Shown: positions 28,881-47,499, counted from the stretch's first letter. The stretch is 64,000 nt of DNA from Candidatus Latescibacterota bacterium (GCA_965223905.1 CBDCXV010000009.1:224001-288000); one strand, 5' to 3'. The notes: a model not told the origin generated them from the letters alone. A program made the numbers and translations.

Positions 28881-29860
28881 GCAGGTTCGCCGACTACGAG
28901 AGGGAATTCTTCGCCAGCCAGCTCGACTCCTTCCTTCCGGACCGCGTCTTCGACGCGCACACCCACCTGTGGCGCAAGGAGTTCGTCGAGTGGTCGGTCC
29001 CCGGCGGGCCCGACGACGTCGGCTACCCCGAGCACTGCGAGTTGATGCAGGACCTGCACCCCGGCCGCCATACCGCGGGCCTGTTCCTGCCCTCGGTAGC
29101 CCTCGGCGGCGACGGCAGCTTCCGGCGGCAGAACGGGTGGGTCGCCCAAGCCGTCGCCGCGGCCCCGGACTGCCGCGGCATGTTCTTCGTCAGACCGGAG
29201 GACGACCCGGAGTGGGTGCGCCAGGAGGTGAAACGGCTTGGATTGCACGGCCTCAAGTGCTACCACACGATGGCCTCGGTGAAGCCGACCTGGGAGGCGG
29301 AGATCCCCGACTACCTGCCGGAGCGGCTGGTGAAGGTCGCCGGCGAGGAGGGCTGGGCGATCACCCTGCACATGGTGAAGTCGCGGGCCGCGGCCGATCC
29401 CGGCAACATTCACTGGATCCGCCGTTACTGCGAGACCTACCCGAACATGCGGCTGATCCTCGCCCACTCGGCGCGCGGGTTCCAGCCGGCGCACAACCTC
29501 GAGGGCCTGCCGCAGCTGGCCGGCCTCGACAACCTCTACTGCGACACCAGCGTCAACTGCGAGCCGATGGCCCACCAGGCGATCATCCGCTTCCTCGGGC
29601 ACGACAAGCTGATGTACGGGACCGACCTGCCGGTCTGCCACGGACGCGGCCGGTCGGTGGGGGTCGCCGACACCTTCCTCTGGCTCGGAGAGGAGCAGCC
29701 GGTCTGGGAGGAGAAGCACCAGACCATCCAGCCGCTGGCCATCGGCCTGGAGCACCTGCGCTCGATCAAGTGGGCCTGCTGGGGGGAGCGCCTCGGGGAC
29801 GCCGCGGTCGAGGACATCTTCTGGAACAACGCGGCGCGGCTGTTCGGCATCGAGGACTGA
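28877..29860 (+). CDS. Amidohydrolase_2 family protein
   Basis: DAHTH, GLKCYH, TLH, ILAHSARG, YGTD, NAARL. Confidence 0.85.
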   Translation: MSRFADYEREFFASQLDSFLPDRVFDAHTHLWRKEFVEWSVPGGPDDVGYPEHCELMQDLHPGRHTAGLFLPSVALGGDGSFRRQNGWVAQAVAAAPDCRGMFFVRPEDDPEWVRQEVKRLGLHGLKCYHTMASVKPTWEAEIPDYLPERLVKVAGEEGWAITLHMVKSRAAADPGNIHWIRRYCETYPNMRLILAHSARGFQPAHNLEGLPQLAGLDNLYCDTSVNCEPMAHQAIIRFLGHDKLMYGTDLPVCHGRGRSVGVADTFLWLGEEQPVWEEKHQTIQPLAIGLEHLRSIKWACWGERLGDAAVEDIFWNNAARLFGIED

Positions 29861-29888
29861 CGGGGAGGCCGCAGGAGGTGAGGACCCA

Positions 29889-32327
29889 ATGGCCCTGAAG
29901 AAATCCCAGCTCTACTCGTCGCTCTGGCAGAGCTGCGACGAGCTGCGCGGCGGCATGGACGCCTCGCAGTACAAGGACTACGTCCTGACGCTGCTGTTCA
30001 TGAAGTACGTCTCGGACAAGTACGCCGGCAGCCCCGACGCGCTTATCGAAGTTCCCGAAGGCGGCGGCTTCGCCGACATGGTAAGGCTCAAGGGCGACAA
30101 GGAGATCGGCGACAAGATCAACACGATCATCGGTGAGCTCGCCGAGGCCAACGACCTCAAGGGAGTCATCGACCAGGCCGACTTCAACGACGAGAGCAAG
30201 CTCGGCGCCGGCAAGGAGATGCAGGACCGGCTCTCCAAGCTGGTCGCCATATTCGAGGGCCTCGACTTCCGCGCCAACCGCGCCGAGGGGGACGACCTGC
30301 TCGGCGACGCCTACGAGTACCTGATGCGGCACTTCGCCACCGAGTCGGGCAAGAGCAAGGGGCAGTTCTACACCCCGGCCGAAGTCTCGCGCATCATGGC
30401 CAAGGTGGTCGGCATCGGCCCGGATACCCGGCAGGACCAGACCATTTACGACCCGACCTGCGGCTCGGGCTCGCTTCTGCTCAAGGCTGCGGACGAGTCG
30501 CCGAGGGGCATCACCGTGTACGGCCAGGAGATGGACAACGCAACCTGGGCCCTGGCCATGATGAACATGATCCTGCACGGCCATGAAACCGCCGAACTCT
30601 GGCGCGGCAACACCCTGGCCTCCCCGTACTTCAAGCACCCGAAGGGAAGCCTCAAGACCTTCGACTTTGCCGTCGCCAATCCGCCCTTTTCGGCCAAGGC
30701 CTGGTCCAGCGGCATCGATCCGGTCAACGACGAGTTCAGGCGTTTCGAGTACGGAATTCCTCCGGCGAAGAACGGGGACTACGCCTTCCTTTTGCATCTG
30801 ATCACTTCGCTCAATAGCAGGGGAAAGGGCGCGATCATCCTGCCGCACGGCGTGCTGTTCCGCGGCAACAAGGAGGCAGCCATCCGCAGGAATCTCATCC
30901 TCCGGGGCCTCATCAAGGGGATCATCGGCCTGCCCGCCAACCTCTTCTACGGCACCGGCATCCCCGCCTGCATCCTGATCCTCGACAAGGAGAACGCCCA
31001 CGCCCGCAGCGGCATCTTCATGATCGACGCGAGCAGGGGCTTTCTCAAGGACGGCAACAAGAACCGCCTGCGCGCGCAGGACATTCACCTCATCGTCGAC
31101 GTGTTCAACCGGCAGACCGAGGTGCCGCGTTATTCCCGCATGGTGCCGGTGGCCGAGATCGCCGATCCCGCCAACGACTACAACCTCAACCTTCCGCGCT
31201 ACATCGATTCCAGCGAGCCCGAAGACCTCCACGACCTCGAGGCGCATCTGCAAGGCGGCATACCCGACCGCGACCTGGACGCGCTCGATACCTACTGGAA
31301 CGTCTTCCCCTCGCTGCGCCAGGCGTTGTTTGCCGGCAACGGCAGGGCGGGCTACAGCGAGGCGCGGGTCGAGACGCCGCAACAGAAGGCGGCCATCCTC
31401 GGAAACCGGGAGTTCAAGTCGTACGAGGCGCGTGTCGCTGGTATCTTTGAGGCATGGCGTGAGGCGCACGAGCCGGTTCTCAAGGGACTGGAGGCGGGGG
31501 CCGATCCAAAGGAGGTCGTCGGCGGTTTGTCGGAAGATCTGCTGAAGAGATTTGCCGACTTGCCGCTGCTCGATCCATACGACGTGTACCAGCGGCTGAT
31601 GGACTATTGGGAAGAGGAAATGCAGGACGACGTATATCTCATTGCCGCTGACGGCTGGACCGAGGCCGCCAGGCCGCGCGGCATCATCGAGGACAGGGAA
31701 AGGAAGATCAAGGAGACGGCGGATCTCACGATCAAGCGCAGGAAGTACAAGATGGACCTGATCCCTCCGGAGCTGATCGTCGCGCGCTACTTCGCCGATA
31801 AACAGGCCGCCATCGATGCGCTACAGGCAAGACAGGAAGCTGCCGCCCGCGAGCTGGAGGAGTTCGTTGAAGAGCACACTGGCGACGGCTTGCTGGAGGA
31901 TGCGGTCAACGACAAGGGCAAGGTCACCAAGGGCGGCGTGACAGAGCGGCTCAAGGCTATCCGATACGAGCTGGAGAGCGACGAGGAACGCGATGCCCTC
32001 AAGCACTGTCGGACCTTGATTGAGGCTGACGCCGAGGCGGGCAAGGCTGTCAAAGAGGCCCAAGCCCGTTTGGATGAGCAGGTGCTGGCCCGCTATGGCG
32101 TGCTCACTGAAGTAGAGATCAAGACGCTGGCGGTCGAGGACAAGTGGTTTGCGAGCATCCGGGGCGCAATCGAGGGTGAGGTGCAGCGGCTGACCCAGCA
32201 GCTCGCCGGGCGCGTGAAGGAACTGGAAGAGCGCTACGCCCGTCCGCTGCCGGAGTTGGAGCGGGAGGTGGAGGTGTTCGGCGCGAGGGTCGAGGGGCAC
32301 TTGAAGCGGATGGGGATTTCGTCGTGA
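29889..32327 (+). CDS. hsdM: Type I R-M methyltransferase subunit
   Basis: LRGGMDASQYKDY, GQFYTP, DPTCGSG, ANPPF, LPHGVLFRG. Confidence 0.97.
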   Translation: MALKKSQLYSSLWQSCDELRGGMDASQYKDYVLTLLFMKYVSDKYAGSPDALIEVPEGGGFADMVRLKGDKEIGDKINTIIGELAEANDLKGVIDQADFNDESKLGAGKEMQDRLSKLVAIFEGLDFRANRAEGDDLLGDAYEYLMRHFATESGKSKGQFYTPAEVSRIMAKVVGIGPDTRQDQTIYDPTCGSGSLLLKAADESPRGITVYGQEMDNATWALAMMNMILHGHETAELWRGNTLASPYFKHPKGSLKTFDFAVANPPFSAKAWSSGIDPVNDEFRRFEYGIPPAKNGDYAFLLHLITSLNSRGKGAIILPHGVLFRGNKEAAIRRNLILRGLIKGIIGLPANLFYGTGIPACILILDKENAHARSGIFMIDASRGFLKDGNKNRLRAQDIHLIVDVFNRQTEVPRYSRMVPVAEIADPANDYNLNLPRYIDSSEPEDLHDLEAHLQGGIPDRDLDALDTYWNVFPSLRQALFAGNGRAGYSEARVETPQQKAAILGNREFKSYEARVAGIFEAWREAHEPVLKGLEAGADPKEVVGGLSEDLLKRFADLPLLDPYDVYQRLMDYWEEEMQDDVYLIAADGWTEAARPRGIIEDRERKIKETADLTIKRRKYKMDLIPPELIVARYFADKQAAIDALQARQEAAARELEEFVEEHTGDGLLEDAVNDKGKVTKGGVTERLKAIRYELESDEERDALKHCRTLIEADAEAGKAVKEAQARLDEQVLARYGVLTEVEIKTLAVEDKWFASIRGAIEGEVQRLTQQLAGRVKELEERYARPLPELEREVEVFGARVEGHLKRMGISS

Positions 32328-32371
32328 GGGAGAGATTCGTCCCGTTGAGTTCCGTACCTTTAGAAGAAGTG
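32278..32371 (+). repeat. hsdM 3' end and downstream junction; source of degenerate copies at 34160-34202 and 42697-42756
   Basis: 32278-32320 vs 34160-34202: 35/43 identical by eye; 32313-32371 aligns with 42697-42756 starting from an identical gggatttcgtcgt. Confidence 0.75.
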
Positions 32372-32430
32372 TGGTATGATGACCGGTCGTTGGCTGGCAA
32401 CCTGAAGTCGTTCACTTTGGAGGAACAGTA

Positions 32431-32655
32431 ATGGTAGAGCAAATAACCGTGTCAGTTGATTCCGATGTAGCCAAACTCTACCGTTCGGCTTCTGACAATG
32501 AGCGTCGCAAACTGGATTTGCTTGTCAATTTGTGTTTGCGTGATGCGACAGAATCCGGGAAATCACTTGGGGACACGATGCTGGAAATCAGCCGCAACGC
32601 GCAACGGCGCGGTCTGACTCCGGAGATTTTGCAGTCCATCTTGGCCGACGAATGA
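32431..32655 (+). CDS. Small putative antitoxin
   Basis: 74 aa, RBS ggagg, ends AQRRGLTPEILQSIL; overlaps the PIN gene start (ATGA). Confidence 0.65.
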   Translation: MVEQITVSVDSDVAKLYRSASDNERRKLDLLVNLCLRDATESGKSLGDTMLEISRNAQRRGLTPEILQSILADE

Positions 32656-32824
32656 CCTGCTTCGTCTTCGATACAAACGTCATCATCAGTGCTTTACTCT
32701 TCAACGATTCCGTACCAGGGCGGGCGTTCCTCCAGGCTTTGAATCATGGAATGATTCTGGTTTCCGGGGCATTGTTGGCGTAGAGATTATAACGCCTGCC
32801 GAGTTCCTGAAATTGACCGCTTGA
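32652..32824 (+). pseudogene. PIN-domain toxin remnant with a large internal deletion
   Basis: MTCFVFDTNVIISALL... N-terminus joined out of frame to the typical C-terminus GVEIITPAEFL. Confidence 0.75.
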
Positions 32825-32830
32825 CCCGCG

Positions 32831-32911
32831 CAAGGTGCCATCGCCGAGGCGTTATCGGATGTGGATGGATTGCTCTCGGCGTTGGAGGAGCTGATCGCCA
32901 AGAAGCGGGCC
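32831..32911 (+). repeat. Orphan hsdS central conserved-region fragment
   Basis: 72/81 nt identical to 34793-34873; QGAIAEALSDVDGLLSALEELIAKKRA vs QRAITEALSDVDKLLAALEALIAKKRA. Confidence 0.9.
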
Positions 32912-32932
32912 TGTAGATTGCGGAGCGGTGCG

Positions 32933-34186
32933 ATGAAACGCGCGGAACTTCTCGAACTGATAGCAGGGGGCGAGAACTCCGGAGTGGAGTTCAAGCGGGA
33001 TGATTTGCGTCCGGAGCAACTGGCGCGGGAGGTGGTGGCGCTCGCCAACTTGCAGGGGGGGCGCGTCCTGCTCGGCGTGGAGGACGACGGCACCGTCACC
33101 GGCATCCAGAGAGACGATCTCGAACAGTGGGTGATGGATTCCGTGTTCGGGCGGGTGGTGCATCCGATGATACTGCCGTTCTACGAGGAAGTTCCGGTAG
33201 ACGATGTACGCCGCGTCGCGGTGGTCACGGTTACGCAAGGTGCCACCAAACCGTACGTCGTCCGGTATCGCGGCAGGGAAGACATCTACATACGGATCGG
33301 CAGCACCTCGCGACTGGCCTCGCGCGAGCAGCAGGCGCGGCTTTTCGCTGCCGGTGGGTTGATTCACACGGAGCTGTTGCCCGTTTCCGGCAGCGGCCTG
33401 TGCGATTTGAGCCGGGAACGGCTGGCGGACTACCTCACCGCAATCGTCGGTGACCGGGAAGTGCCCGAGATCGAGGAGGCGTGGAACGAGCGGCTTTGCG
33501 CGCTGGGTTTCATGGTTGAGCGGGAGGACGGCCCGCCCGCCTGTACGATCGCCGGGTTGATCCTGTTCGGCTATCGGCCGCGTCGCCTGTTGCGCCATGC
33601 CGGTATCCGTTGGATGTGCTTTGAGGGCCGGGAGAAGACCTACGATGCCCTTGACGATCAAGTGATTGAAGGGCCGCTTGTCGATCTTTGGCAGGCGCTG
33701 TCGGGAGGCCGCGAACTGGTGGAAAAAGGGCTGATTGAACGCCTTGCCGATGCAATGCGGCCGTTCGTATCCGAGGAGGCTGGCCAGGTAGGGGAGTCCA
33801 TGCGCCGGGAACGACGCTGGCACTATCCGCTGGAAGCGCTGCGCGAAGGGGTTGTCAACGCCCTGACGCATCGGGACTGGACGCGGTATGAGGAGATTGA
33901 GGTGGTCCGTTATGCGGACCGGATAGAGATACTCAGCCCCGGTGCGCTGCAAAACGGCATGACGGTGGAAAAAATGGTCGCCGGCCAACGGGTTCCCCGC
34001 AATCTGCTCATCTCCGAGACGTTGCGGGACTACAGCTATTCCGATGCACGCGGCATGGGGGTGCGGAACAAGATCATTCCGCTGATGCGGGCGCACAACG
34101 GCGTTGACCCGGAGTTCGAGGCGACGGAGGATTTCTTGCGGTTGACGCTGCGACGAGGCTCGGGGCGAAGGTTGAGTGGGGCCTGA
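32933..34186 (+). CDS. AlbA_2 (Schlafen-like) + HATPase_c_4 protein
   Basis: ENSGVEFK, ALANLQGG.VLLGVEDDG, REGVVNALTHRD, EILSPG, RGMG. Confidence 0.85.
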   Translation: MKRAELLELIAGGENSGVEFKRDDLRPEQLAREVVALANLQGGRVLLGVEDDGTVTGIQRDDLEQWVMDSVFGRVVHPMILPFYEEVPVDDVRRVAVVTVTQGATKPYVVRYRGREDIYIRIGSTSRLASREQQARLFAAGGLIHTELLPVSGSGLCDLSRERLADYLTAIVGDREVPEIEEAWNERLCALGFMVEREDGPPACTIAGLILFGYRPRRLLRHAGIRWMCFEGREKTYDALDDQVIEGPLVDLWQALSGGRELVEKGLIERLADAMRPFVSEEAGQVGESMRRERRWHYPLEALREGVVNALTHRDWTRYEEIEVVRYADRIEILSPGALQNGMTVEKMVAGQRVPRNLLISETLRDYSYSDARGMGVRNKIIPLMRAHNGVDPEFEATEDFLRLTLRRGSGRRLSGA

Positions 34187-34202
34187 AGTGGATGGGGATT
34201 TC
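34160..34202 (+). repeat. Degenerate copy of the hsdM 3' end just upstream of hsdS
   Basis: Translates AKVEWGLKWMGIS vs hsdM ARVEGHLKRMGIS. Confidence 0.75.
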
Positions 34203-34303
34203 CTATGAGTCCAACGTTCGATTTGGGGAGTCGCCCTGCTGGTCCGGAGACGGAGAAATCTGCAACAGGGTCGCGGATTTCCAGCAGCTTTGAGATTCAA
34301 CAA

Positions 34304-35521
34304 ATGAACAACGATCTTGGCGACGGACGCCGTGCGCAATCGGAAGAGGTGCCTGTGGGTTACAAGCGGACAGAAGTGGGGGTGATTCCGGTAAAGTGGA
34401 ACGTAAATAGAATCGACCAAAATACATCCATCAAGACTGGCTCGAAAAATACACAAGACAAGCAGGAGGACGGTGACTACCCGTTCTTTGTACGATCTCA
34501 GGAAGTCGAGCGCATCAGCTCCTATTCGTACGATGGCGAAGCCGTGTTGACAGCGGGTGATGGAGTCGGGACTGGAAAGGTGTTCCACTACATCCACGGT
34601 CGGTTCGACGTACACCAACGTGTTTACCGGATTACCGACTTCTCTGATCGGCTCAATGGCCGCTACTTCTTCTACCAGTTCAGCGCGGGATTCTACAATC
34701 GCATCATGTCCATGACAGCAAAGTCCTCTGTCGACTCCGTTCGGCTGGAGATGATCGCCGGCATGAAGATTCCAATGCCTCCCCTAGGCGAACAACGCGC
34801 CATCACCGAGGCGTTGTCGGATGTGGATAAGTTGCTCGCGGCGTTGGAGGCGCTGATCGCCAAGAAGCGGGCCGTCAAGCAGGCCGCCATGCAGCAACTC
34901 CTCACCGGCAAAACTCGCCTGCCGGGGTTCAGCGGGGCGTGGGAGACGAAGCGGCTTGAGCACATTGTCGATTGTCTCGATCATGTTCGCATACCTTTAA
35001 ATGAAACTCAGCGAGCAGACATGCCGGGTCCCTATCCATATTGCGGTGCCAACGGGGTCCTTGATTACGTGAACGACTTCATTCTTGATGATGACGTGAT
35101 TCTGATTGCTGAGGATGGTGGATACTTTGACGAATATGCCCATCGGCCAATAGCGTATCGTATGTCGGGAAAGATATGGGTGAACAACCATGCACATATC
35201 CTCAAAGCCAAGCGTGGTTATGGTCAGGGGTTCCTGTATTTCTCTCTGGTGCATAAGAATATACTCCCTTACTTGGCTAGCGGAACTCGTGCAAAACTCA
35301 ACAAGTCTGAGATGTATAAAATTGAGATATACCTTCCACTCCATTATGCTGAACAAAAGGCAATCGCCGCCGTTCTCTCCGACATAGATGCCGAGATCGC
35401 CGCGCTGGAACGACGCCGAGACAAAGCTCGCGCCGTCAAACAGGGCATGATGCAGCAGCTTCTTACCGGCCGGGTACGACTGGTCAAAATAACTCGCACC
35501 ACGGAAACCTCGGTATGCTGA
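34304..35521 (+). CDS. hsdS: Type I R-M specificity subunit
   Basis: GYKRTEVGVIP N-terminus, two TRDs, two conserved EQxAI...QQLLTG regions. Confidence 0.95.
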   Translation: MNNDLGDGRRAQSEEVPVGYKRTEVGVIPVKWNVNRIDQNTSIKTGSKNTQDKQEDGDYPFFVRSQEVERISSYSYDGEAVLTAGDGVGTGKVFHYIHGRFDVHQRVYRITDFSDRLNGRYFFYQFSAGFYNRIMSMTAKSSVDSVRLEMIAGMKIPMPPLGEQRAITEALSDVDKLLAALEALIAKKRAVKQAAMQQLLTGKTRLPGFSGAWETKRLEHIVDCLDHVRIPLNETQRADMPGPYPYCGANGVLDYVNDFILDDDVILIAEDGGYFDEYAHRPIAYRMSGKIWVNNHAHILKAKRGYGQGFLYFSLVHKNILPYLASGTRAKLNKSEMYKIEIYLPLHYAEQKAIAAVLSDIDAEIAALERRRDKARAVKQGMMQQLLTGRVRLVKITRTTETSVC

Positions 35522-36054
35522 ACATCTTTGCCAAGTGTCTTCTGGTATCGACATCCTTGTCACCTGTGTTAGGTGCCGTGGCCATAAATCAGTTGGAGTG
35601 TGGTGAGCCATGGACTAACTGGATTTGGTGGATAGTAGTGGCGTTTTTTCTGGTGGCTCTATGTTGGGGACTGTTGAAATATGCTAAAAAAAATGCCCAG
35701 AAGCACTTACTTTATATCAAGGAATTTCAACGCAGGGATCATGAAATGCTCACGTTCCTGTTTATCTATCTGTTGCCCTTTGTCAGATCAAAGCACTCGA
35801 CGTTTGCTAACGAGTGGATCATGAGTGTGTACATTCTGTCAATCATTATCCTAGCCATTGCTCATGCAGGTGCCTTTCATTTCAATCCAGTCATGCGTCT
35901 TCTATTTGGCTATCGATTTTATGCTGTAAAGGATTGTCATGGGGTATCCAATCTTCTCATTAGCAAGACGGACTTGCGGCGATCTGGAAAAGAAGTCCAA
36001 GTGGTGGGACTCGATTGGAACGTTTATCTATACATAGGAGAGTCAGATGCTTGA
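35515..36054 (+). CDS. kwaA: KwaA-like 4-TM protein (Kiwa anti-phage system)
   Basis: Four hydrophobic segments, FLFIYLLP, FHFNP...FGYRFY; AT-rich relative to flanks; coupled to the KwaB-like gene. Confidence 0.7.
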   Translation: MLNIFAKCLLVSTSLSPVLGAVAINQLECGEPWTNWIWWIVVAFFLVALCWGLLKYAKKNAQKHLLYIKEFQRRDHEMLTFLFIYLLPFVRSKHSTFANEWIMSVYILSIIILAIAHAGAFHFNPVMRLLFGYRFYAVKDCHGVSNLLISKTDLRRSGKEVQVVGLDWNVYLYIGESDA

Positions 36055-36982
36055 GAACTTCCATCTTGCGGCGATCATTACACAAGGTACCCAAATGCGC
36101 CTGCTACAGATTCCTCTGCATCAGGCGCTACAGGAGTATCTCGCGGAGAGCTGGCAAACTCAGCTACAGGAGTATCTCGCGGAGAGCCGGAAAACTCAGT
36201 ATGACACATTTGTCGAAGATATACGTGAGGAAGATATACGTGAGATTGATTTCAACATCGGTTACAAATTGGATGAGGGCGAGTGCTTTCGCTTGTCTGA
36301 CTACGAACTGCCTGCCTGGATAGCGGAGGAAAACAGCGAGACCATTCGGAATTTTGATGCGATCGGTACCAATGAGACGTTGATTGATTCCATTAAGGGC
36401 ATGGTGGCATTCGCGCTAAACGACCAAGGAGAGGAGTTGATGCTGTTCCAGAACTTCACCCATTCTCAGGTGATCCGACCGGGCCTATCTCTGTTACTGC
36501 AACACCAGACTTACAAGACCATAGAACACCCAGGGCTGACGCTTGACAGGAAGCTGAGCGCCGTGTATTTGCCTACTGAAGGTAAGTTGCTGTTTCGTAG
36601 CTTCCGCACCGTCAATACCTTCCTACCGCTCGCGGACTTCTATAAAGAAGCATCGGAACAAGAGATTCGAGAAGTGCTGGGGCACGAACTGCTGGCACCA
36701 CAAGACGCGGACGCCCTGGCGGTGGGAGCCAATCAATGGTTCCGTAAGCGGTTCGCTATGCTCAGGGATTCACGTGTGCTCGATCAGTATTCTGCGAGAC
36801 AAATTCAGGAGCGTTCCAACGGATACGACGTTGAGATTCACATCTCACAAGACAAGATTGTCTTCCCAGCTGATAAGCCTACGGCGAAAAAAGTCCTGCA
36901 ATTTCTCAACGAAGAGATATTTCGAGGCGCTATCACGGAAACGCTCTATGAGACCAATTCTAAACGCGAAGCCGATAAATGA
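36047..36982 (+). CDS. kwaB: KwaB-like (DUF4868) protein (Kiwa anti-phage system)
   Basis: FQNF..SQVI, LTLDRKL...LLFRSF, C-terminal FLNEEIFRGAITETLYETNSK. Confidence 0.72.
   Translation: MLENFHLAAIITQGTQMRLLQIPLHQALQEYLAESWQTQLQEYLAESRKTQYDTFVEDIREEDIREIDFNIGYKLDEGECFRLSDYELPAWIAEENSETIRNFDAIGTNETLIDSIKGMVAFALNDQGEELMLFQNFTHSQVIRPGLSLLLQHQTYKTIEHPGLTLDRKLSAVYLPTEGKLLFRSFRTVNTFLPLADFYKEASEQEIREVLGHELLAPQDADALAVGANQWFRKRFAMLRDSRVLDQYSARQIQERSNGYDVEIHISQDKIVFPADKPTAKKVLQFLNEEIFRGAITETLYETNSKREADK
36128..36244 (+). repeat. In-frame tandem duplications in the kwaB-like gene (36 bp x2; 15 bp x2)
   Basis: 36128-36163/36164-36199 (LQEYLAESWQTQ/LQEYLAESRKTQ); gaagatatacgtgag x2 at 36215-36244. Confidence 0.92.
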
Positions 36983-36986
36983 ACCG

Positions 36987-37118
36987 ATGTGGGACCAGCG
37001 GTGGGGCAAGCTGTTTGCGCAACCCGAGTCGGAGGATTTGCTAAAGTGGCTGACCGATGAGACCTTGGCAGCCCACCGGGCAGGGAGAACTCAGCCCGTC
37101 AATATGGAAGAGTTGTAG
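36987..37118 (+). pseudogene. C-terminal fragment of an antitoxin paralogous to 42835-43059
   Basis: DQRWGKLFAQPESEDLLKWLTDETLAAHRAGRTQPV vs DQRWAALFARPESEDLLERLADETLAAHRAGQTRPV. Confidence 0.85.
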
Positions 37119-37158
37119 ATGTGGGCTCCTCCGCACAATCCCCGACTGGGGTGGTGTC

Positions 37159-37241
37159 CGGGACAAAACCGCCACCCTCAGCAGGGCATGATGCCGCAGC
37201 TTCTCACCGGCTGGATGGGGCTGCTCGAACCGGGGCTCTGA
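37159..37241 (+). repeat. Degenerate hsdS 3' end copy
   Basis: cagggcatgatgccgcagcttctcaccggc vs hsdS cagggcatgatgcagcagcttcttaccggc (35441-35470). Confidence 0.85.
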
Positions 37242-37254
37242 CAGAGACGACGAC

Positions 37255-38753
37255 ATGAGTGAGAACCAGAACGTCGAATGGAAAGAGACGTGGCGGGACG
37301 AATACCTGAAGTGGATCTGCGGCTTCGCCAACGCGCAGGGCGGCGTCTTGGAAATCGGCAAGAACAACCGGGGTGAGGTGGTCGGCGTGAGGAACGTTCT
37401 CCGACTGCTCGAAGAGATTCCCAACAAGGCGCAGGCATTGCTCGGCGTCGTGGTGGACGTGAACCTGAGTCGGAAGACGGCGGGGAATACCTGGAAATCG
37501 CCGTTGATCCCTACCCGAATCCGATCAGCTACAAGGGCGAATTCCACTATCGAAGCGGCAGCACCAGGCAGGTTCTCAGGGGCGCGGCACTCAGCCGCTT
37601 CCTGTTGCAGAAATACGGCCGAACGTGGGACGATGTGCCCCTGCCGGGGGTCGGCCTCAAGGATCTGGACGGTCGCGTCTTCGATGGGTTTCGCCAGCGG
37701 GGTGCCGGCAGCGAACGCTTGCCGCAGGACATTCTGGACGAATCCGATGAAGAGGTGATCGAAAGGCTTCAGTTGCGAGAAGCCGGTTTCCTGAAACGCG
37801 CCGCGGTACTGCTCTTTCATCCGGCACCGGACCGGTTCGTGATGGAAGCCTATGTGAAGATCGGCTATTTCCGCGGTTCGGAGCTGCTGTATCAGGATGT
37901 TGTCGAAGGCGATCTGTTCACCCAGGTCGATCGGACGATGGACTTGCTGTACACGAAGTACACGAAAGCATTGATCTCCTACGACGGCGTTTACCGCGTG
38001 GAGACCTTCCCCGTGCCGCGCGAAGCCATGCGCGAAGCGGTGATCAACGCCATCATCCACCGCGACTACGCCAGCCCCACCACGATTCAGATTCGCGTGT
38101 ACGACGACCGGATCGCGATCTGGAATGCGGTGCAGTTGCCGCCTGAATGGACCGCCGATCAGCTTGCCGGGGAACTTTCGTCGAAGCCGTACAACCCGCG
38201 AATCGCCTATGCCTTCTTCCGAGCTGGAATGATCGAAGCCTGGGGACGGGGCATCCGGCGGATCGTGGACATGTGCCGGGAGGCTGGCAACCCCACACCA
38301 GAGTGGAAGCTGGAATCGAGTGGCGATGGTTTGTGGTTGAGGTTCCCGTTCTCCGCCGCGTACCGGGCAGCCGATTCCCCAGCAAGCAGCGCCCCTGCCC
38401 CGAAAACTACCCGGAAAGCCGGGGTCTCTGGAGTTGAAGCCGGGGACCAGTCAGAGTCGCAGCCAGACTGGGGTCGGGTCGGCGGGGTGCAAGTCGAAGT
38501 GCAGGCCCAAGATAAAACTAGGGAGAAAACTAGGGAGAAAACGGAGGAAACCAGGGAGAAAACCAGGGAGAAAATCTTGAACCTGATTGCCGTTGACCCC
38601 TCAATCACCACGACGGAACTGGCGAACCGACTTGGGATCACGCGAAAGGGAATCCAGTGGCAGATCGGCAAGCTGAAGAAAATGGGCGTCTTGGAACGGA
38701 TCGGGCCCGCCAAGGGCGGCCATTGGAAAATAGTGGAAACGGTGGATGAGTAA
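37255..38753 (+). CDS. Second AlbA_2 + HATPase_c_4 + wHTH protein, frameshift near 37468
   Basis: ENQNVEWK, GFANAQGG; REAVINAIIHRDY, IEAWGRG; C-terminal HTH ...ERIGPAKGGHW; one missing A splits the ORF. Confidence 0.8.
38514..38573 (+). repeat. 12-bp VNTR encoding KTRE linker repeats
   Basis: aaaactagggag x2, one variant unit, then (aaa)accagggag x2. Confidence 0.85.
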
Positions 38754-41700
38754 CGTCGGCCAGAGGGAATTCCACGCGCAACAGCGGGTGGTCGAGTTCT
38801 TCCGGGACTCCCTTCGCTACGCCTATCTCGGCCGCTGGCAGGACCGAGATATCAACCGCAACGTCGAAAAAGGCCACCTCACCCGCTGGCTGAAACGCCA
38901 GGGTCACGGCGACGAGATCATCGAAAAGGCGCTGTACGAGCTGGACAAGGCCGCGGCCCTCGGAGGCAGCAAGACGCTCTACGAGGCCAACCGCGAAGTC
39001 TACGGCCTTCTGCGCTACGGTGTGAAGGTGCAGCCCGGCGTCGGCGAGCAGTTCGTCACGGTGTCGCTTATCGACTGGACGGATCCCCGCAATAACGACT
39101 TCGGCATTGCCCAGGAGGTGACCGTCTTCGGGGAGAACAACCGCCGCCCCGACCTCGTGCTCTACGTCAACGGCATCGCTTTGGGAGTGCTGGAGCTGAA
39201 GCGCTCCACGGTATCGGTTGCCGAGGGCATCCGCCAGAACCTCGACAGCCAGAAGAAGGAGTTCATCCAGCCGTTTTTCGCCACGGTGCAGTTCCTGATG
39301 GCGGGCAATGAAACCGAGGGGTTGCGCTACGCCGTCATCGGGACCCCGGAGAAGCACTGGCTGCGCTGGAAGGAAACCGAAGTCGACCCGGACGCCGGGG
39401 ACAGCCCGCTGCTCCGGGAGCTGGGGCAGCTCTGCAAGAAAGAGCGGCTGCTGGAGATCATCCACGATTTTCTGGTCTTCGACTCCGGCGACAAGAAGAT
39501 CTGCCGCCACAACCAGTACTTCGGCGTGAAGGCGGCGCAGGAGCGCGTGAAGCGGCGGGAGGGCGGTATCATCTGGCACACCCAGGGGAGCGGAAAGAGC
39601 CTGACCATGGTCTGGCTGGCCAAATGGATTCGCGAGCATGTCACCGACCCCCGGGTTCTTCTCATCACCGACCGCACCGAGCTGGACGAGCAGATCGAGG
39701 CGGTTTTCAAGGGGGTCAGCGAGGACATCCACCGCACAAGCAGCGGTGCCGATCTGGTGCGTGTGCTCAACAGCCCGGACGAGTGGCTGATCGGCTCGCT
39801 GATCCACAAGTTCGGCGCCTCCGAGGAGATCAGCGAAAAGGACATCGAGGCCTACGTCGACGAGATCGGGAAGAATCTGCCCAGGGGTTTCCACCCGAAG
39901 GGCGAGATCTTCGTCTTCGTGGACGAGTGCCACCGCACCCAGTCCGGCAAGCTCCACGAGGCCATGAAGGCGCTGCTGCCGGGGGCCATGCTGATCGGCT
40001 TCACCGGGACGCCGCTGCTCAAGGAGGACAAGAAGCGGAGCATCGAGACCTTCGGGACCTACATCCACACCTACAAGTACGACGAGGCGGTGAGCGACGG
40101 CGTGGTGCTGGACCTGCGCTACGAGGCGCGCGACATCGACCAGAGCATCGCCTCGCAGGACAGGATCGATCAGTGGTTCGACCTCAAGACCCGTGGGCTG
40201 ACCGACGTGGCAAAGGCCCAGCTCAAGCAGCGTTGGGGCACGATGCGAAGAGTCCTGAGTTCGCGTGAACGGCTGGAGAAGATCGTGGCCGACATCCTGT
40301 TCGACATGGAGACTCGGGACCGCCTCGAGAGCGGCCGCGGCAACGCCTTGCTCGTATCCGACAGCATTTACTCGGCCTGCCGTTTTTTCGAGAGGTTTCA
40401 GGAGCACGGTCTGGCCGGCAGATGCGCCATCGTCACCTCGTACAGGCCGGCCACGAGGGACACCAAGGGAGAGGAGACCGGCGAGGGGCTCACCGAAAAG
40501 CTGCTGCAGTACGAAGCCTACCGGAAGATGCTCGCGGCGCACTTCAACGAGCCGGAAGAAAAGGCGATGCGCAAGGTCGAGACCTTCGAAAAGGAGGTGA
40601 AGAGGCGCTTCATCGACGAGCCGGGGCAGATGAAGCTCCTGATCGTCGTCGACAAGCTGCTGACCGGTTTCGACGCGCCTTCGGCGACCTATCTCTACAT
40701 CGACAAGCACATGCAGGACCACGGCCTGTTTCAGGCCATCTGCCGTGTCAACCGCCTCGACGGGGAAGACAAGGAATACGGCTACATCATCGACTACAAG
40801 GACCTGTTCCGGTCGCTCGAGAAGTCAATCGAGGATTACACCGGCGAGGCATTCGAAGGCTATGACAAGGAGGACGTGGAGGGCCTGCTGAAGGACCGGC
40901 TGAAGCAGGGCCGGGAACGGTTGGAGGAGGCGCGGGAGGCGGTCAAGGGGCTGTGCGAGCCCGTCGAGCCCCCGCGCGACACCGCAGCCTATCTGCGCTT
41001 CTTCTGCGCGGCCGAAAGCGGTAACACCGAACAACTCAAGGAGAACGAACCCAAGAGAGTGGCGTTGTACAAGCTGGCCGCAGCTTTCCTGCGAGCCTAT
41101 GCCAACCTGGCCAACGAGATGTGCGAGGCCGGCTATTCGGACGCCGAGGCGCGGGAGATCAAGGCCGAGGTGGACCACTACGAGAAGGTGCGCCAGGAGG
41201 TCAAGCTGGCCAGCGGCGACTACATCGACCTCAAGCTGTACGAGCCGGCCATGCGGCACCTGCTCGACACCTACATCCGGGCGGAGGAGAGCGAGAAGGT
41301 CTCCGCTTTCGACGACCTGACGCTGGTGCAGCTGATCGTCGAGCGTGGAGAAAAGGCGGTGGACGAGCTGCCCGAGGGTATCCGCAGGCACCCCGAGGCG
41401 GTTGCCGAGACGATCGAGAACAACGTCAGGCGGCTGATCATAGACGAGATGGAGGTCAATCCCAGGTACTACGAAAAGATGTCGGAACTGCTCGACGACC
41501 TGATCCGGCAGCGCCGGCAGGAGGCGATGGACTACAAGGCTTACCTGAAGAGGATCATCGAGCTGACCAGGAATGTCGGCAGGCCGGAGGCTGAGCAGTC
41601 CTATCCTGCGGCCATCAACACCGCCGCCCTGAGGTCGCTCTTCGACAACCTGGAGGAAGCGCATGCCTGGGCGTGGCGAGAAAAGGCATCGAAGGACTAC

Positions 41701-41901
41701 GGCACCGGGACGGATGTTGATGCCAGGGAGGCGCTGGCGCTGGCCCTTGATAGCGCTATTCGCTTGGTGAAGAAGGCGGACTGGCGTGGAAACCGATTCA
41801 AGGAGCGGGAGGTCCGCATCGCCATCAGGTCGGAAGTCGACGGCGACGAGGCCTTTACGGAGAAGATATTCGAGCTCGTAAAGAACCAACGGGAGTACTG
41901 A
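38746..41901 (+). CDS. hsdR: Type I R-M restriction subunit
   Basis: RPDLVLYVNG...ELK nuclease motif, HTQGSGKS, DECHR, GFTGTP, LLTGFDAP, QAICRVNR. Confidence 0.97.
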   Translation: MSNVGQREFHAQQRVVEFFRDSLRYAYLGRWQDRDINRNVEKGHLTRWLKRQGHGDEIIEKALYELDKAAALGGSKTLYEANREVYGLLRYGVKVQPGVGEQFVTVSLIDWTDPRNNDFGIAQEVTVFGENNRRPDLVLYVNGIALGVLELKRSTVSVAEGIRQNLDSQKKEFIQPFFATVQFLMAGNETEGLRYAVIGTPEKHWLRWKETEVDPDAGDSPLLRELGQLCKKERLLEIIHDFLVFDSGDKKICRHNQYFGVKAAQERVKRREGGIIWHTQGSGKSLTMVWLAKWIREHVTDPRVLLITDRTELDEQIEAVFKGVSEDIHRTSSGADLVRVLNSPDEWLIGSLIHKFGASEEISEKDIEAYVDEIGKNLPRGFHPKGEIFVFVDECHRTQSGKLHEAMKALLPGAMLIGFTGTPLLKEDKKRSIETFGTYIHTYKYDEAVSDGVVLDLRYEARDIDQSIASQDRIDQWFDLKTRGLTDVAKAQLKQRWGTMRRVLSSRERLEKIVADILFDMETRDRLESGRGNALLVSDSIYSACRFFERFQEHGLAGRCAIVTSYRPATRDTKGEETGEGLTEKLLQYEAYRKMLAAHFNEPEEKAMRKVETFEKEVKRRFIDEPGQMKLLIVVDKLLTGFDAPSATYLYIDKHMQDHGLFQAICRVNRLDGEDKEYGYIIDYKDLFRSLEKSIEDYTGEAFEGYDKEDVEGLLKDRLKQGRERLEEAREAVKGLCEPVEPPRDTAAYLRFFCAAESGNTEQLKENEPKRVALYKLAAAFLRAYANLANEMCEAGYSDAEAREIKAEVDHYEKVRQEVKLASGDYIDLKLYEPAMRHLLDTYIRAEESEKVSAFDDLTLVQLIVERGEKAVDELPEGIRRHPEAVAETIENNVRRLIIDEMEVNPRYYEKMSELLDDLIRQRRQEAMDYKAYLKRIIELTRNVGRPEAEQSYPAAINTAALRSLFDNLEEAHAWAWREKASKDYGTGTDVDAREALALALDSAIRLVKKADWRGNRFKEREVRIAIRSEVDGDEAFTEKIFELVKNQREY

Positions 41902-41902
41902 C

Positions 41903-42625
41903 GTGGAACGTCAGCAAATCGAAGTGCGCGGCATCTCCGTGGAGGTCGTCCGCAAGGATATCAAGAACCTCCATGTGGGGGTTTACCCCCCGGCGGGCCG
42001 GGTGCGGGTGGCTGCGCCGTTGCGTCTTGACGACGGCACCCTGCGGCTGGCGGTCATCTCACGCCTGGGATGGATTCGTCGGAGGCGGGCGGAGTTCGCG
42101 CAACAGGACCGCCAGTCCCAGCGGGAGATGGTGACCGGCGAGAGCCATTACTTCAGGGGCAGGCGCTACCGGCTCGACGTGATCGACCACGACGGCATGC
42201 CTCGCATTCGCCTGGTCAACAACACCAGAATGGAACTGCGCACACGTCCGGGCGATGACCGGGACGCCCGGGAGGCCGTGCTTCACCGGTGGTACCGCCG
42301 CCAGCTGCGAGGCGAATTGCCGCGGCTTCTGGACAAGTGGGAAAGGACGGTCGGCGTGACCGTGGACGAGGTGCGGATCAAGAGGATGAAAACCCGCTGG
42401 GGCTCCTGCAATGCCGATGCCCGGCGCATCTGGCTGAACCTCGAGCTGGCCAAGAAGCCGGCATCCTGCCTGGCGTACATCCTCGTGCATGAAATGGTCC
42501 ACCTGATCGAGCGCAGTCACAACGACCGGTTCCGGGACCTGATGGATCAATTCATGCCTCAGTGGCATCTGCACAGGGACGAGCTCAATCGCGCCCCGCT
42601 CGCTCACGAAGACTGGTTATACTGA
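41903..42625 (+). CDS. M48/YgjP-family zinc metallohydrolase
   Basis: MKTRWGSC, YILVHEMVHL (HExxH); typical hsdR neighbour. Confidence 0.88.
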   Translation: MERQQIEVRGISVEVVRKDIKNLHVGVYPPAGRVRVAAPLRLDDGTLRLAVISRLGWIRRRRAEFAQQDRQSQREMVTGESHYFRGRRYRLDVIDHDGMPRIRLVNNTRMELRTRPGDDRDAREAVLHRWYRRQLRGELPRLLDKWERTVGVTVDEVRIKRMKTRWGSCNADARRIWLNLELAKKPASCLAYILVHEMVHLIERSHNDRFRDLMDQFMPQWHLHRDELNRAPLAHEDWLY

Positions 42626-42696
42626 AAAAGAAGGCTCATCGGGGTTGGTATGGGCCCGGGCAGCCTGTGTGAGAACCCGGTAGGATTTTTCCCGTC

Positions 42697-42756
42697 GGGA
42701 TTTCGTCGTATGGGAGGGGGTTCGTACCCCTGGGTTCAGTATCTTTTGGAAGAGTG
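42697..42756 (+). repeat. Degenerate copy of the hsdM 3' junction preceding the TA module
   Basis: gggatttcgtcgtatgggagggggttcgtacccctgggttcagtatcttttggaagagtg vs 32313 gggatttcgtcgtgagggagagattcgtcccgttgagttccgtacctttagaagaagtg. Confidence 0.75.
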
Positions 42757-42834
42757 GAAATAGCGGGTAAGGGACGAGAGGCAGCGCATACGTCAACAGC
42801 GTTTGCCCATCAGGACTTGGCAAGGAGGAAACCG

Positions 42835-43059
42835 ATGACCCGACTTCTTCAGGAAGCTTTCGAGCGAGTCTCCAAACTTTCGCAGGAAGAACAGAACAGG
42901 TTTGCGCGGTTCATGCTGGTGGCGCTGGAGTCGGACCAGCGATGGGCCGCGTTGTTTGCGCGACCCGAATCGGAGGATTTACTGGAGCGACTTGCCGATG
43001 AGACCCTGGCAGCCCACCGAGCTGGACAGACCCGGCCCGTCAAAATAGAAGATTTGTAG
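42835..43059 (+). CDS. Putative antitoxin
   Basis: MTRLLQEAFERVSKLSQEEQ...W..LF...L..LADE; RBS aggagg; upstream of a RelE-like gene. Confidence 0.7.
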   Translation: MTRLLQEAFERVSKLSQEEQNRFARFMLVALESDQRWAALFARPESEDLLERLADETLAAHRAGQTRPVKIEDL

Positions 43060-43061
43060 GT

Positions 43062-43331
43062 GTGCGTTCGTTCGCACAGACCAGCTTCTGGGTTTCATAC
43101 AGACGCCTCCCGGAACACGTTCGCCGGCAAGCTCGTGCATCCTGTCAGTTCTTCATATCAGATCCCCATCACCCGAGCCTGGATTTCAAGCGCGTGAGTC
43201 GACGGAGTCCAGTCTACTCCGTGAGGGTGAGCATTGACTATCGTGCCCCCGGCGTACTGGACGACGGCGATATTGTGTGGTTCTGGATTGGTCACCACCA
43301 GGAATACGACCGGCTACTCAAGCGGATGTAG
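43062..43331 (+). CDS. RelE/ParE-like toxin
   Basis: FW..YRRLP...DPHHPSLDFK...YSVRVSIDYRA...WFWIGHHQEYD. Confidence 0.78.
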   Translation: MRSFAQTSFWVSYRRLPEHVRRQARASCQFFISDPHHPSLDFKRVSRRSPVYSVRVSIDYRAPGVLDDGDIVWFWIGHHQEYDRLLKRM

Positions 43332-43355
43332 GATGCTGTACGGGGCAATTGTGCC

Positions 43356-43438
43356 GCCACGCTGGAGCTCCCGCTGAAAAGACTCACGCCATCAAGCTGG
43401 GCATGATGCAGTAGCTTTCACCGGCTCGATGAGGCTGG
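43356..43438 (+). repeat. Degenerate hsdS 3' end copy at the right island edge
   Basis: gccacgctggag...cgccatcaagctgggcatgatgcagtagctttcaccggc vs hsdS gccgcgctggaa...cgccgtcaaacagggcatgatgcagcagcttcttaccggc. Confidence 0.8.
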
Positions 43439-43576
43439 CCCCACGGATTGCTTGCGCATTCCTCGGAGCCGGGATGAGCGAAGCTCGGGGACGGGATTTC
43501 GTGGAGAACCGGTAGATTTCCTCCTCCCCAGTTCTACCCCTGAACAAACCCACAAATCCCGCAAGAAAGGATCCAA

Positions 43577-44777
43577 ATGGCCCTGGAGAAATTCACCATC
43601 TCGCGGGACGACGGCGTGTACGAGTGCTTCCCGCACCTGTGCCTGACCCGGAGCGGCCGCATCCTCCTGGCGTACCGGGAGAGCAACGGCCACGTCGCCA
43701 GCGAGTTCTGCCGCCTCGTGCTTCGCCACAGCGACGACGCCGGGCGCACCTGGTCCGAACGCTTCGTGCTCCGCGACGAGGCTTACGAGAACGGCGTCCT
43801 GACCAAGTGGAACTGCCCGAAGATCCAGCAGCTGCGCGACGGCCGCGTCCTGCTTCTGTGCGACGCCATCGACTTCCCCCCCGGAGAGTGGAACGCCACC
43901 GCGGGCAACGCCCGCATCGTGCTCTGGTTCAGCAACGACGACGGGGCGTCCTGGTCGGAGGGGTTCGCAACCAGCGTCAACGGCATCTGCCCCGACGTCG
44001 TCACCGAGCTGGCGGACGGCACCTGGCTGCTGGCGGCCAACACCTACGCCGACGGCATGCGGCGCGTCGTTCAGAACATCTCGGCGAGCGCCGACCAGGG
44101 GCGGACCTGGGGACCTCCGCGCGACATCTGCCCCGACCCGGACTACCGCCTCGCCGAGGCCAGCGTCATCGCCTGCCCGGACGGCGAGCTGGTCGTCTAC
44201 CTGAGGGAGGAGTCGGGTAAGGGCCGGCCGCTGCAGAAGATGATTTCGAGGGACGGCGGCCGTTCCTGGGAAGGCCCGTTCGACACCCTCAACCCGGCCG
44301 CCCACGGCATGCCGGTCGCGGGTGTTACCCGGGACCGGCTGGTGCTGACCCTGGGCCGTTTCAGCCTGCGCTCGAGCTGGCGCGTCGACATGAGCGCGGA
44401 GACCGTGCGCCGGCGCCTGGAGACACGCACCATCGTCGTCCCCAACGTGCCCGAGAACGCCGCTTTCCGCAGCCGCCTGAAACCGGGGCCGGGCACCCGC
44501 ATCGACGACGACGAGATCGTCATCGCGGGGGGGCGGGACTCCTCCTCACACCTTCGCCTTCCTCGAACCATTGGCCAGCGCCCTCGAAGCGGACCTCGAC
44601 AGGCAGGACGGCCTGCTGCTCCCCCTGGACCACGACCGCAACAACATCAGCTGCGACAGCGGCTATACCGGCTGGGTCGAGTACGAGCGCGGCCGCTTCC
44701 TCGCCGCCAATTACATCAACGACGACGCCCCCATGGCCCAGATCCGGGGCTACCGCTTCGGAGTCGAGGATTTCTAA
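43577..44777 (+). CDS. Sialidase/BNR (Asp-box) family protein, frameshift in a G run near 44530
   Basis: Asp boxes SDDAGRTW, SNDDGASW, SADQGRTW, SRDGGRSW; C-terminal DSGYTGW in the shifted frame. Confidence 0.8.
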
Positions 44778-47468: not shown

Positions 47469-47499
47469 CAGGCGGAAGAAGAAACCGCCCAGGGAGGGG

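Follow-up and report, generated by a model that had tools for sequence, protein, structure and literature searches.

Relic gene ends at module borders in a type I restriction-modification defence island of a Latescibacterota bacterium

The defence genes nested in restriction-modification (R-M) operons are well established as a place to find new antiviral systems. Such embedded genes have been catalogued in type I R-M, BREX, DISARM and Hma systems, including PrrC in EcoprrI (10.1101/2024.01.29.577857), and TgvAB is nested in the type I system of the VPI-2 island of Vibrio cholerae (PMC11411939). The cataloguing preprint leaves why and how embedding happens for exploration (10.1101/2024.01.29.577857). 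Here we analyse a stretch of 64,000 nucleotides from Candidatus Latescibacterota bacterium (GCA_965223905.1 CBDCXV010000009.1:224001-288000; hereafter the window), in which a type I R-M operon carries defence genes between hsdM, hsdS and hsdR, together with dead pieces of hsd and cargo genes at the module borders. These relics are probably passive scars of related operon copies that were added serially and partly deleted, and not parts of an integron-like device.

Among the closest described systems is an island of enteropathogenic Escherichia coli (EPEC) that combines RptR, a type I R-M system, DarTG2 and an M48 peptidase; its authors term the hsdS-hsdR site a potential recombination hotspot (PMC12255303). 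We collected relatives of the window locus by searching contigs with the HsdR protein. The best 80 of 148 confirmed stretches were kept, giving 76 loci (L-numbered) from Latescibacterota, Poribacteria, Gammaproteobacteria, Planctomycetota, Gemmatimonadota, Acidobacteriota, Chloroflexota-type lineages and two archaea. The hsdR gene of one relative, L016, has matches in 276 of 5426 complete E. coli genomes, and E. coli hsdR DNA matches it at 67-69% identity. Two E. coli loci that we inspected (L077 and L078) read hsdM-hsdS-DarT-DarG-hsdR-M48, which is the published RptR/DarTG2 island, and hsdM-hsdS-DUF262-DUF262-hsdR-M48. The window shares with this island the operon family and the order, with a long hsdM, hsdS, a cargo slot, hsdR and an M48/YgjP-like peptidase, and the cargo of the E. 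coli slot varies by strain (DarTG or two DUF262 genes). It differs in having no RptR-like gene upstream of hsdM, in its cargo, which consists of a Kiwa-like pair, AlbA_2 genes and toxin-antitoxin modules instead of DarTG, and in having additional cargo between hsdM and hsdS as well as relic gene pieces. An rptR-type gene would find no room in the 28 nt between the end of an amidohydrolase open reading frame (ORF) at 29860 and the start of hsdM at 29889. The locus belongs to the E. coli RptR/M48 operon family, without rptR, and type I operons with embedded defence cargo are an already known kind.

As in the catalogue of embedded defence systems, foreign genes lie between hsd genes in the same orientation, known and unknown ones mixed. 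The accessible part of that catalogue differs from the window in showing no relic hsd pieces at module borders; it is these pieces that let the order of acquisition be read. In a literature search that did not extend to subscription journals or the supplements of Payne et al., we found no description of relic gene ends as module-border markers that match intact junctions. What appears to be new here, then, is the presence of relic gene ends at module borders across phyla and their match to intact junctions elsewhere, a useful if modest hint at the origin of embedding.

A single type I operon, predicted to work, forms the base of this defence island. hsdM (29889..32327, + strand, 812 aa) is intact (Pfam N6_Mtase 3.4e-99, HsdM_N 3.9e-17) and covers positions 1-809 of the 810 in the PADLOC MTase_I profile. 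hsdS (34205..35521, +, 438 aa) is also intact, with two target-recognition domains (TRDs) and two conserved regions; Pfam Methylase_S matches in two stretches, PADLOC Specificity_I is covered from 7 to 439 of 443, and full matches to the nhmmer profile of the conserved regions lie at 34790-34929 and 35351-35484. The intact hsdR (38746..41901, +, 1051 aa; Pfam HSDR_N 1.4e-35, SWI2_SNF2 5.3e-69, T1R_D3-like) covers positions 1-1031 of 1034 in PADLOC REase_I. A YgjP-like (M48-type) metallopeptidase gene (41903..42625, +; Pfam YgjP-like 1.8e-61) starts 2 nt past the hsdR stop. The same gene directly follows hsdR in 75 of the 76 loci, the contig of L055 ending first, inside hsdR, and the E. coli homologue of its product is annotated in RefSeq as an M48 family metallopeptidase. 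Nested between hsdM and hsdR are eight cargo ORFs, all on the + strand. As cargo the island has the Kiwa-like pair, two AlbA_2/HATPase_c_4 genes, of which one is frameshifted, and two toxin-antitoxin pairs, the one decayed and the other apparently intact. The flanks hold ordinary metabolic genes. GC content is 68-70% in the flanks, 60-63% in hsdM and hsdR and 46-63% over the island as a whole; the 3' part of hsdS and the Kiwa-like pair, at 46-53%, are of foreign composition.

An original prediction, made from the sequence alone, held that the gaps of this island are filled with degenerate pieces of its own core genes. Self-BLASTN (word size 7) over 29001-44500 recovered every piece that it had listed, in direct orientation only. 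Ten direct pairs reach 36 bits in the real sequence against none in 100 block-wise dinucleotide shuffles (1-kb blocks), whose maximum is 33.7 bits. Two of the ten are ordinary biology, namely the central against the terminal conserved region of hsdS and the two AlbA_2 paralogues against each other. The hsdM 3' end (32278-32320) recurs at 34160-34202 (81% over 43 nt, E 3e-5), and the hsdM stop with the junction downstream of it (32313-32374) at 42697-42757 (76% over 63 nt, E 1e-4). The hsdS central conserved region at 34793-34873 has a copy at 32831-32911 (89% over 81 nt, E 3e-24). The hsdS tail has two: 35416-35473 pairs with 37158-37214 (79%) and 35398-35470 with 43355-43425 (77%), and these two orphan tails match each other (37180-37223 and 43395-43437, 86%). 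Pieces of other genes recur as well, an antitoxin (36989-37137 and 42930-43078, 78.5% over 149 nt, E 3e-30) and an internal piece of AlbA_2 (38195-38250 and 43440-43495, 75%).

These short hsd, antitoxin and AlbA_2 copies are dead relics, all on the + strand. We characterised them with nhmmer profiles built from the hsdS conserved regions and the hsdM tail of the window, which were run against the whole window and the 76 loci. The relic at 32831..32911 is the 5' half of an hsdS conserved region (profile positions 4-84, E 1e-14), and the closest relative, L001, has it too, at 5254-5334. The hsdM 3'-end relic (34160..34202; E 5e-8 in targeted BLASTN) lies immediately 5' of the hsdS start codon, precisely the position at which the hsdM gene of compact loci ends. 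The antitoxin relic (36989..37137) begins 7 nt past the KwaB stop and runs from about codon 32 into the first 19 nt of a deleted ParE-like gene; the KwaB stop thus abuts codon 32 of an antitoxin, a junction in a gene that is neither hsdM nor hsdS. An orphan hsdS tail (37157..37227, profile positions 65-136, E 4e-9) follows, 28 nt 5' of the second AlbA_2 gene. Past the peptidase gene lie the relic of the hsdM stop and junction (42697..42757), a second orphan hsdS tail with an in-frame stop (43356..43439, profile positions 49-134, E 8e-12) and an internal AlbA_2/HATPase_c_4 relic (43440..43495) that is 87% identical to L002 9372-9425. The original prediction had overlooked this last relic, along with the Kiwa-like pair (35515-36982), both AlbA_2/HATPase_c_4 genes and the YgjP-like gene. 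Identity between the relics and the resident copies is 75-89%, a divergence close to that seen for tails of other phyla.

Two further candidates did not hold. The pieces at 32831-32911 (profile 4-84) and 37157-37227 (65-136) might have been one hsdS split by a single insertion. We rejected this because 42930-43437 is a paralogue, as one unit, of the orphan tail together with the antitoxin relic that precedes it; the truncated tail therefore predates the junction on the Kiwa side. A resemblance of the flank 3' of YgjP to the hsdM junction, seen by eye, was unconvincing.

Taking the canonical order as M, toxin-antitoxin, S, module, R and peptidase, we find that the 16 window items fall into four cycles of the operon order. 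No smaller number is possible, and none of 200,000 permutations needs as few. This supports the regular order of the original prediction. Cycle 1 consists of M, AT1 with a PIN stub, the S relic and the first AlbA_2 gene; cycle 2 of the M-tail relic, S and the Kiwa-like pair; cycle 3 of the antitoxin relic, the S-tail relic, the second AlbA_2 gene, R and YgjP; and cycle 4 of the M-junction relic, AT2 with ParE, the S-tail relic and the AlbA relic. Cycles 3 and 4 are paralogous as units (antitoxin 78.5%, tail 86%, AlbA 75%), cycle 3 lacking just the toxin gene. Exactly one intact M, one S and one R are left in the window, each from a different cycle.

How stable is this arrangement? L001, a Latescibacterota chromosome, shares its flanking genes with the window. 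Window positions 27816-34389, which hold the antitoxin, the PIN stub, the conserved-region relic, the first AlbA_2 gene and the hsdM-tail relic, are colinear with it at 95.6% identity. From 34389 to 38055 the two differ. The window has hsdS from the start of TRD1, the Kiwa-like pair, the antitoxin relic, the orphan tail and the 5' 800 nt of the second AlbA_2 gene; opposite this block L001 has another hsdS allele, a DUF6978-DUF1828 remnant and a HATPase_c_4/Fic_C gene. Both TRDs differ between the two hsdS genes, and the conserved regions align at 84%. Colinearity returns at 38055-38467 (93%) and at 38746-42689 (95%). The next 815 bp (42689-43504), comprising the hsdM-junction relic, AT2, ParE, an orphan tail and the AlbA relic, are absent from L001. 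A direct repeat of about 17 nt on the + strand (42672-42689 and 43505-43521) brackets this segment and is present once in L001. The right-hand copy at 43505 was also considered as part of the AlbA_2 relic and ruled out, as the second AlbA_2 gene continues differently past 38250. Because these blocks differ, cargo differs even between close relatives, and no single fixed arrangement is shared, even with an orthologous locus at 95% identity. The borders between the two loci lie at the hsdS 5' end, inside AlbA_2 and at the pair of short repeats, with no matched hsd arms. The block 34389-38055, which differs between flanks of 95% identity, fits a double crossover in conserved island genes. In L001 itself, hsdM (2311-4747), the ortholog of the window gene, is split at residue 207 between two reading frames, owing either to a frameshift or to an error in sequencing.

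Cargo turnover extends over the whole set of relatives. Seventy-one loci, the window included, have the 5' end of hsdR, and 51 have an intact hsdS upstream of it. The gap from hsdS to hsdR is below 150 nt in 7 of the 51, 150-1000 nt in 5, 1-3 kb in 11 and at least 3 kb in 28; the largest is 7837 nt, and cargo ranges from zero up. Extra DNA lies between hsdM and hsdS in 17 of 48 loci. This slot often holds the same antitoxin as the window, followed by an intact hsdS (L006, L038 and L053). The original prediction had toxin-antitoxin modules between the arms that normally flank the variable TRD slot; in these three loci they sit in the intergenic slot, not in the TRD slot. The same modules stand behind different hsdS alleles in different phyla, and the operon family moves widely between phyla.

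Relics accompany the cargo in a minority of these loci. Orphan hsdS 3' pieces lie in the hsdS-hsdR gap of 7 of the 51 loci, all seven among the 39 whose gap reaches 1 kb (window, L007, L008, L022, L023, L026 and L052). Further orphans occur in L002, L004 and L021, with no intact hsdS in view, and pieces lie at contig edges in L050 and L040. All orphans are intergenic, 15-245 nt 5' of the next + strand ORF. Their right ends fall at the natural end of hsdS (profile positions 118-137), and their left ends vary from 19 to 81; there is therefore no fixed crossover site. The hsdM-tail profile missed both short copies in the window itself, and for this reason hsdM tails were sought by targeted BLASTN in 18 loci, with L020 dropped (no hsdS ORF) and L014 and L060 having no hsdM-hsdS interval. 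Copies stand behind the hsdM-hsdS cargo in the window and L001 (one shared event), in L013, in L034 (100 nt, 85%) and in L038 (31 nt); by this search there is none in 10 of the 16 loci with at least 245 nt between the two genes. A different repeat was seen in L048, where three tandem copies (90-95%) of a 64-nt sequence lie just 3' of hsdM, before hsdS (2921-3240). The original prediction would have cargo always bounded by hsd pieces. Orphan hsdS and hsdM tails do stand at cargo borders in other phyla, but most borders are bare: no piece is found at 32 of the 39 hsdS-hsdR loci or at those 10 of 16. Nor was an orphan piece present in the cargo slot of the two E. coli loci examined. In one of these, L078 of E. 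coli O157:H7, the hsdS conserved-region profile matches 46 nt inside hsdR (10260-10305, E 4e-5, 40-kb search); a match inside hsdR was seen in none of the 76 other loci.

Other genes have left debris as well. L002 and L025 carry 5' fragments of hsdR; L025, L060 and L066 have additional copies or parts of YgjP, and L066 also has a fragment of hsdM. AlbA_2 fragments occur in several loci, and hsdS genes with a single full conserved region in L005, L057, L065 and L069. The hsdR gene of L054 (10001-14296) has an interruption of about 1.16 kb between alignment residues 541 and 539, possibly an inserted element or an intron.

The origin of an orphan can be read from what stands behind it. Window positions 37180-38378, the orphan tail and AlbA_2, are colinear with L060 6313-7522, where AlbA_2 comes immediately behind an intact hsdS, and also with the orphan and AlbA_2 of L008. 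In L002 the orphan and its DUF6978-DUF1828 module are colinear with the intact hsdS tail and module of L001 (85%), L013, L009, L038 and L016. The piece in L050, with a Kiwa-like pair behind it, is colinear with the window, L010 and L024, where the hsdS tail is followed by KwaA and KwaB. Altogether, 10 of 12 orphans stand before a module of a type that some other locus has immediately behind an intact hsdS; those of L007 (DUF2806) and L004 (TIR_2) have no comparator. Because relic and module are colinear with intact junctions elsewhere, each relic is the end left over from a gene that formerly stood in front of the block. The pieces are leftover gene ends, not arms that pair around each cargo.

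As to the route and direction of recombination, we infer the following. The relics are probably what is left of three or more additional, diverged operons of the same kind (hsdM, toxin-antitoxin, hsdS, module, hsdR and peptidase). An incoming operon would pair with the resident through any conserved stretch, whether the hsdM body, the hsdS ends, the HATPase_c_4 gene, hsdR or the flanks, and its other side would be joined imprecisely; alternatively, whole copies may have integrated in tandem. Homology-facilitated illegitimate recombination works in the former way, anchored by homology on one side and joined imprecisely on the other. Deletions would then strip the redundant M, S and R genes and leave the useful cargo. 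In this manner cargo could stack without a recombinase of its own, and the pieces would be footprints, not devices. The cyclic order, the debris from all operon genes, the variable relic ends, their divergence of 75-89% identity, the junction at codon 32 and the absence of a recombinase match all fit such scars. The in-frame stop in the relic at 43356-43439 fits an old or foreign copy.

Several points weigh against this reading. The window and the 76 loci hold no intermediate, for example a full tandem operon pair; they hold end states only. Nearly all orphan hsdS pieces are confined to the final 55-115 nt of the gene. This concentration does not follow from random deletion end-points without an added assumption, and a preferred landing site would lead one to expect it equally. 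The added assumption could be selection for the upstream or expression signals of the next gene, or a focus of crossovers on the most conserved 30 nt; such a focus shades into a landing pad, and the readings then differ in whether the pieces are reused. The 815-bp segment with its short direct repeat could equally be an insertion by another mechanism. Because orphans occur in only 7 of the 39 cargo-bearing loci, most stacking leaves no trace, and the generality of the model rests on a minority. Finally, the module map was drawn with a crude ORF caller that prefers the + strand, and module identity was assigned by BLASTP cluster.

A reading of wider reach is that the conserved 3' ends of hsdM and hsdS, hsdR and the HATPase_c_4 gene serve as universal homology handles, by which blocks of a gene tail and its module travel between type I loci of unrelated phyla and stack without a dedicated recombinase. 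We put this forward tentatively, as possible but not probable. If true, the relics would be a readable record of acquisition order, the tail would be kept because it supplies expression signals for the module behind it, and the known embedding of defence systems would gain a concrete, testable mechanism.

The original prediction saw the pieces as arms that act as landing pads. Spelled out, an hsdM tail, cargo and an hsdS conserved region would form a cassette, and RecA-dependent recombination between the repeated arms would capture it, release it as a circle and insert it again. There is something to be said for this. Direct repeats of the hsdS tail bracket cargo in the seven loci listed above, and direct repeats of the hsdM tail do so in the window and L001, L013, L034 and L038. 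All 129 of 129 conserved-region matches are on the operon strand, the orphans retain the most conserved 30-nt core of hsdS, the same modules recur behind different alleles across phyla, and the hsdS-hsdR site has been named a potential recombination hotspot (PMC12255303). The bracketing repeats are, however, only 77-89% identical and 43-100 nt long, a poor substrate for RecA. Relic ends vary, most cargo (32 of 39 and 10 of 16 loci) has no flanking piece, and several borders fall in genes that are not arms, among them the KwaB junction and the L001 breakpoint inside AlbA_2. Relics of hsdR, YgjP, antitoxin and AlbA_2 are left unexplained, and the pieces go with the module behind them instead of the cargo in front. 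We think reusable landing pads rather unlikely. A site-specific mobile element, with its recombinase supplied in trans, might instead target the 3' end of hsdS or hsdM, bring a replacement end, in the manner of islands that integrate at tRNA genes or the 3' ends of genes, and leave att-like direct repeats. Cargo does begin right past an intact gene end with a displaced copy of that end behind it, the 17-nt repeat surrounds a segment absent from L001, and in L008 cargo between hsdS and an orphan tail includes a weak match to an IS200-like Y1 transposase (E 1e-4). Yet no recombinase or transposase family was matched among 18 island ORFs and 97 others of at least 110 aa in the window, shorter ORFs outside the island being unscanned; the absence of a recombinase gene, also remarked in the original prediction, stands to this extent. 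The relics share no crossover point (starts at profile 19-81), the repeat copies are diverged and not identical, and the cargo modules are mutually unrelated and without common end sequences. Such an element seems very improbable to us.

Extra hsdS sequence near an expressed hsdS is the hallmark of invertible type I loci, according to a description of phase-variable systems (PMC7672463), and the relics could accordingly be silent donor segments for specificity switching by phase variation or gene conversion. The likeness ends there. The relics are pieces of conserved regions without any TRD, all are direct and none inverted, there is no recombinase match nearby to serve as partner, and one relic has an in-frame stop; we give this idea hardly any credence. 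Least probable of all is that the similarity is due to chance or that the assembly is at fault. In favour of this, the two copies of the hsdM tail span just 43-63 nt (E 1e-4 to 3e-5) and the window probably comes from a metagenome-assembled genome. For the pieces as a set we reject it: no shuffle out of 100 reaches 36 bits, the left half of the island with two relics is reproduced at 95.6% in L001, an independent assembly, and the same kinds of relic occur in other phyla.

We return to the passive scars. The conserved regions of hsdS are the recombination sites of diverged alleles, as in the exchange of TRDs and in half-gene forms. The window and L001 resemble this domain shuffling in that both TRDs differ and the conserved regions align; they differ from it in that whole defence modules outside hsdS are exchanged and the leftover conserved-region pieces are non-coding. 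Integron arrays offer a looser likeness, the stacking in one direction of unrelated small modules, toxin-antitoxin pairs among them, beside a conserved platform. The window differs in that it has no integrase match and no shared cassette-end element that we could find, its module ends being pieces of neighbour genes of variable extent. An IntI-type tyrosine recombinase had no match among the 18 and 97 ORFs scanned, and no short hairpin recurs at module ends in the list of inverted repeats, attC sites not having been searched with a dedicated tool. Beyond stacking, we found nothing that supports the integron-like platform of the original prediction.

The locus and its relatives thus carry physical footprints of embedding, dead gene ends at module borders on the operon strand. 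Should the pattern hold widely, embedding would occur by recombination between related operons and not by mobile-element insertion, and the footprints would offer a means to delimit and date cargo modules. The cargo map is also a list of many uncharacterised genes in a defence context.

In the window, the first cargo behind hsdM is a putative antitoxin gene, AT1 (32431..32655, +, 74 aa), without a family match in Pfam, PADLOC or NCBIfam scans. The same gene lies between hsdM and hsdS in L001, L006, L034, L038, L053 and L057. Its stop overlaps the start of what had been called the PIN toxin of an antitoxin-PIN pair. The PIN_3 match is there (PF13470, E 6.6e-4, below the curated cut-off), but the gene is merely an N-terminal stub of 43 codons (32652..32783, +), with 71% identity over 38 aa to the N-terminus of the L038 PIN protein; L001 has the same stub. 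The second putative pair follows the peptidase gene. AT2 (42835..43059, +) encodes 74 aa from its ATG, an ORF start at 42754 also being possible; it has no family match in the same scans and no homologue among the 76 loci at E 1e-3. Its stop is 2 nt before the toxin gene (43062..43331, +, 89 aa), an arrangement of a small upstream antitoxin-type ORF and a ParE/RelE-fold toxin. The toxin pair proposed as antitoxin-RelE is thus present, although the toxin matches a ParE-like model (PF24732, 37.1 bits against a cut-off of 24.4).

The Kiwa-like pair consists of a KwaA-like membrane protein gene (35515..36054, +; PADLOC KwaA 1.6e-37, GC 46-50%) and a KwaB-like gene (36047..36982, +; PADLOC KwaB 2.8e-55). 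Both are near full length to the PADLOC profiles; NCBIfam scores are 54.9 bits for KwaA (cut-off 100) and 32.1 bits for KwaB (cut-off 200), and Pfam finds no DUF4868 match in the KwaB-like protein at E 0.01. The KwaA-like start overlaps the hsdS stop by 7 nt, an overlap that is identical in L010 and L024.

The first AlbA_2 (Schlafen-type) and HATPase_c_4 gene (32933..34186, +, 417 aa; Pfam SLFN_AlbA_2 6e-20, HATPase_c_4 1.8e-16) has homologues in the same position in L001 and L007. A gene like it also lies directly past the YgjP-like gene in Latescibacterota L004, L005, L007 and L013 (13.9-15.2 kb); at that position the window has only the 56-nt AlbA relic. The second (37255..38753, +; Pfam AlbA_2, HATPase_c_4 and HTH_24) is frameshifted near codon 71, in two frames in the window against a single ORF of 514-547 aa in five relatives. 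It is a mosaic of L002/L007-like and L001-like parts. Between its HATPase_c_4 and HTH_24 domains, tandem 12-nt repeats (38503-38574) encode a charged low-complexity linker. L001 lacks this stretch, and its gene has a Fic-like_C domain at the end instead.

In the relatives, cargo modules were named by Pfam and PADLOC on cluster representatives. They include the Kiwa-like pair, DUF6978-DUF1828, AAA_13 and AAA_15/21 ATPases, a type IIG methyltransferase-nuclease, Shedu, GmrSD, YhcG, FitA-PIN, Fic, several HATPase_c_4 proteins and many unknowns. Uncharacterised cargo in the map, such as unk4, unk25, unk26, unk27 and DUF6978-DUF1828, comes mostly from sponge-associated and other uncultured lineages. 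One block recurs in L014, L021, L025, L052 and L004, with the order SLATT, TGT-like, Ogg-like glycosylase, QueC and ThsB-type TIR; it joins 7-deazaguanine-pathway-like genes with TIR and membrane effector domains.

Outside the island, the window holds a second defence-like pair on the - strand (3174-5088), an AAA_15/AAA_21 ATPase gene followed by one for a DUF4276 protein; the best NCBIfam match of the ATPase is MAD3, far under its cut-off. A family B DNA polymerase gene (7620-10055; DNA_pol_B and an exonuclease domain) stands among metabolic genes. On the other side of the island, two adjacent genes for PTPS_related membrane proteins (44779-47376 and 47455-50064) both match L001 15196-17787 at about 86-87% nucleotide identity, a tandem duplication relative to L001.

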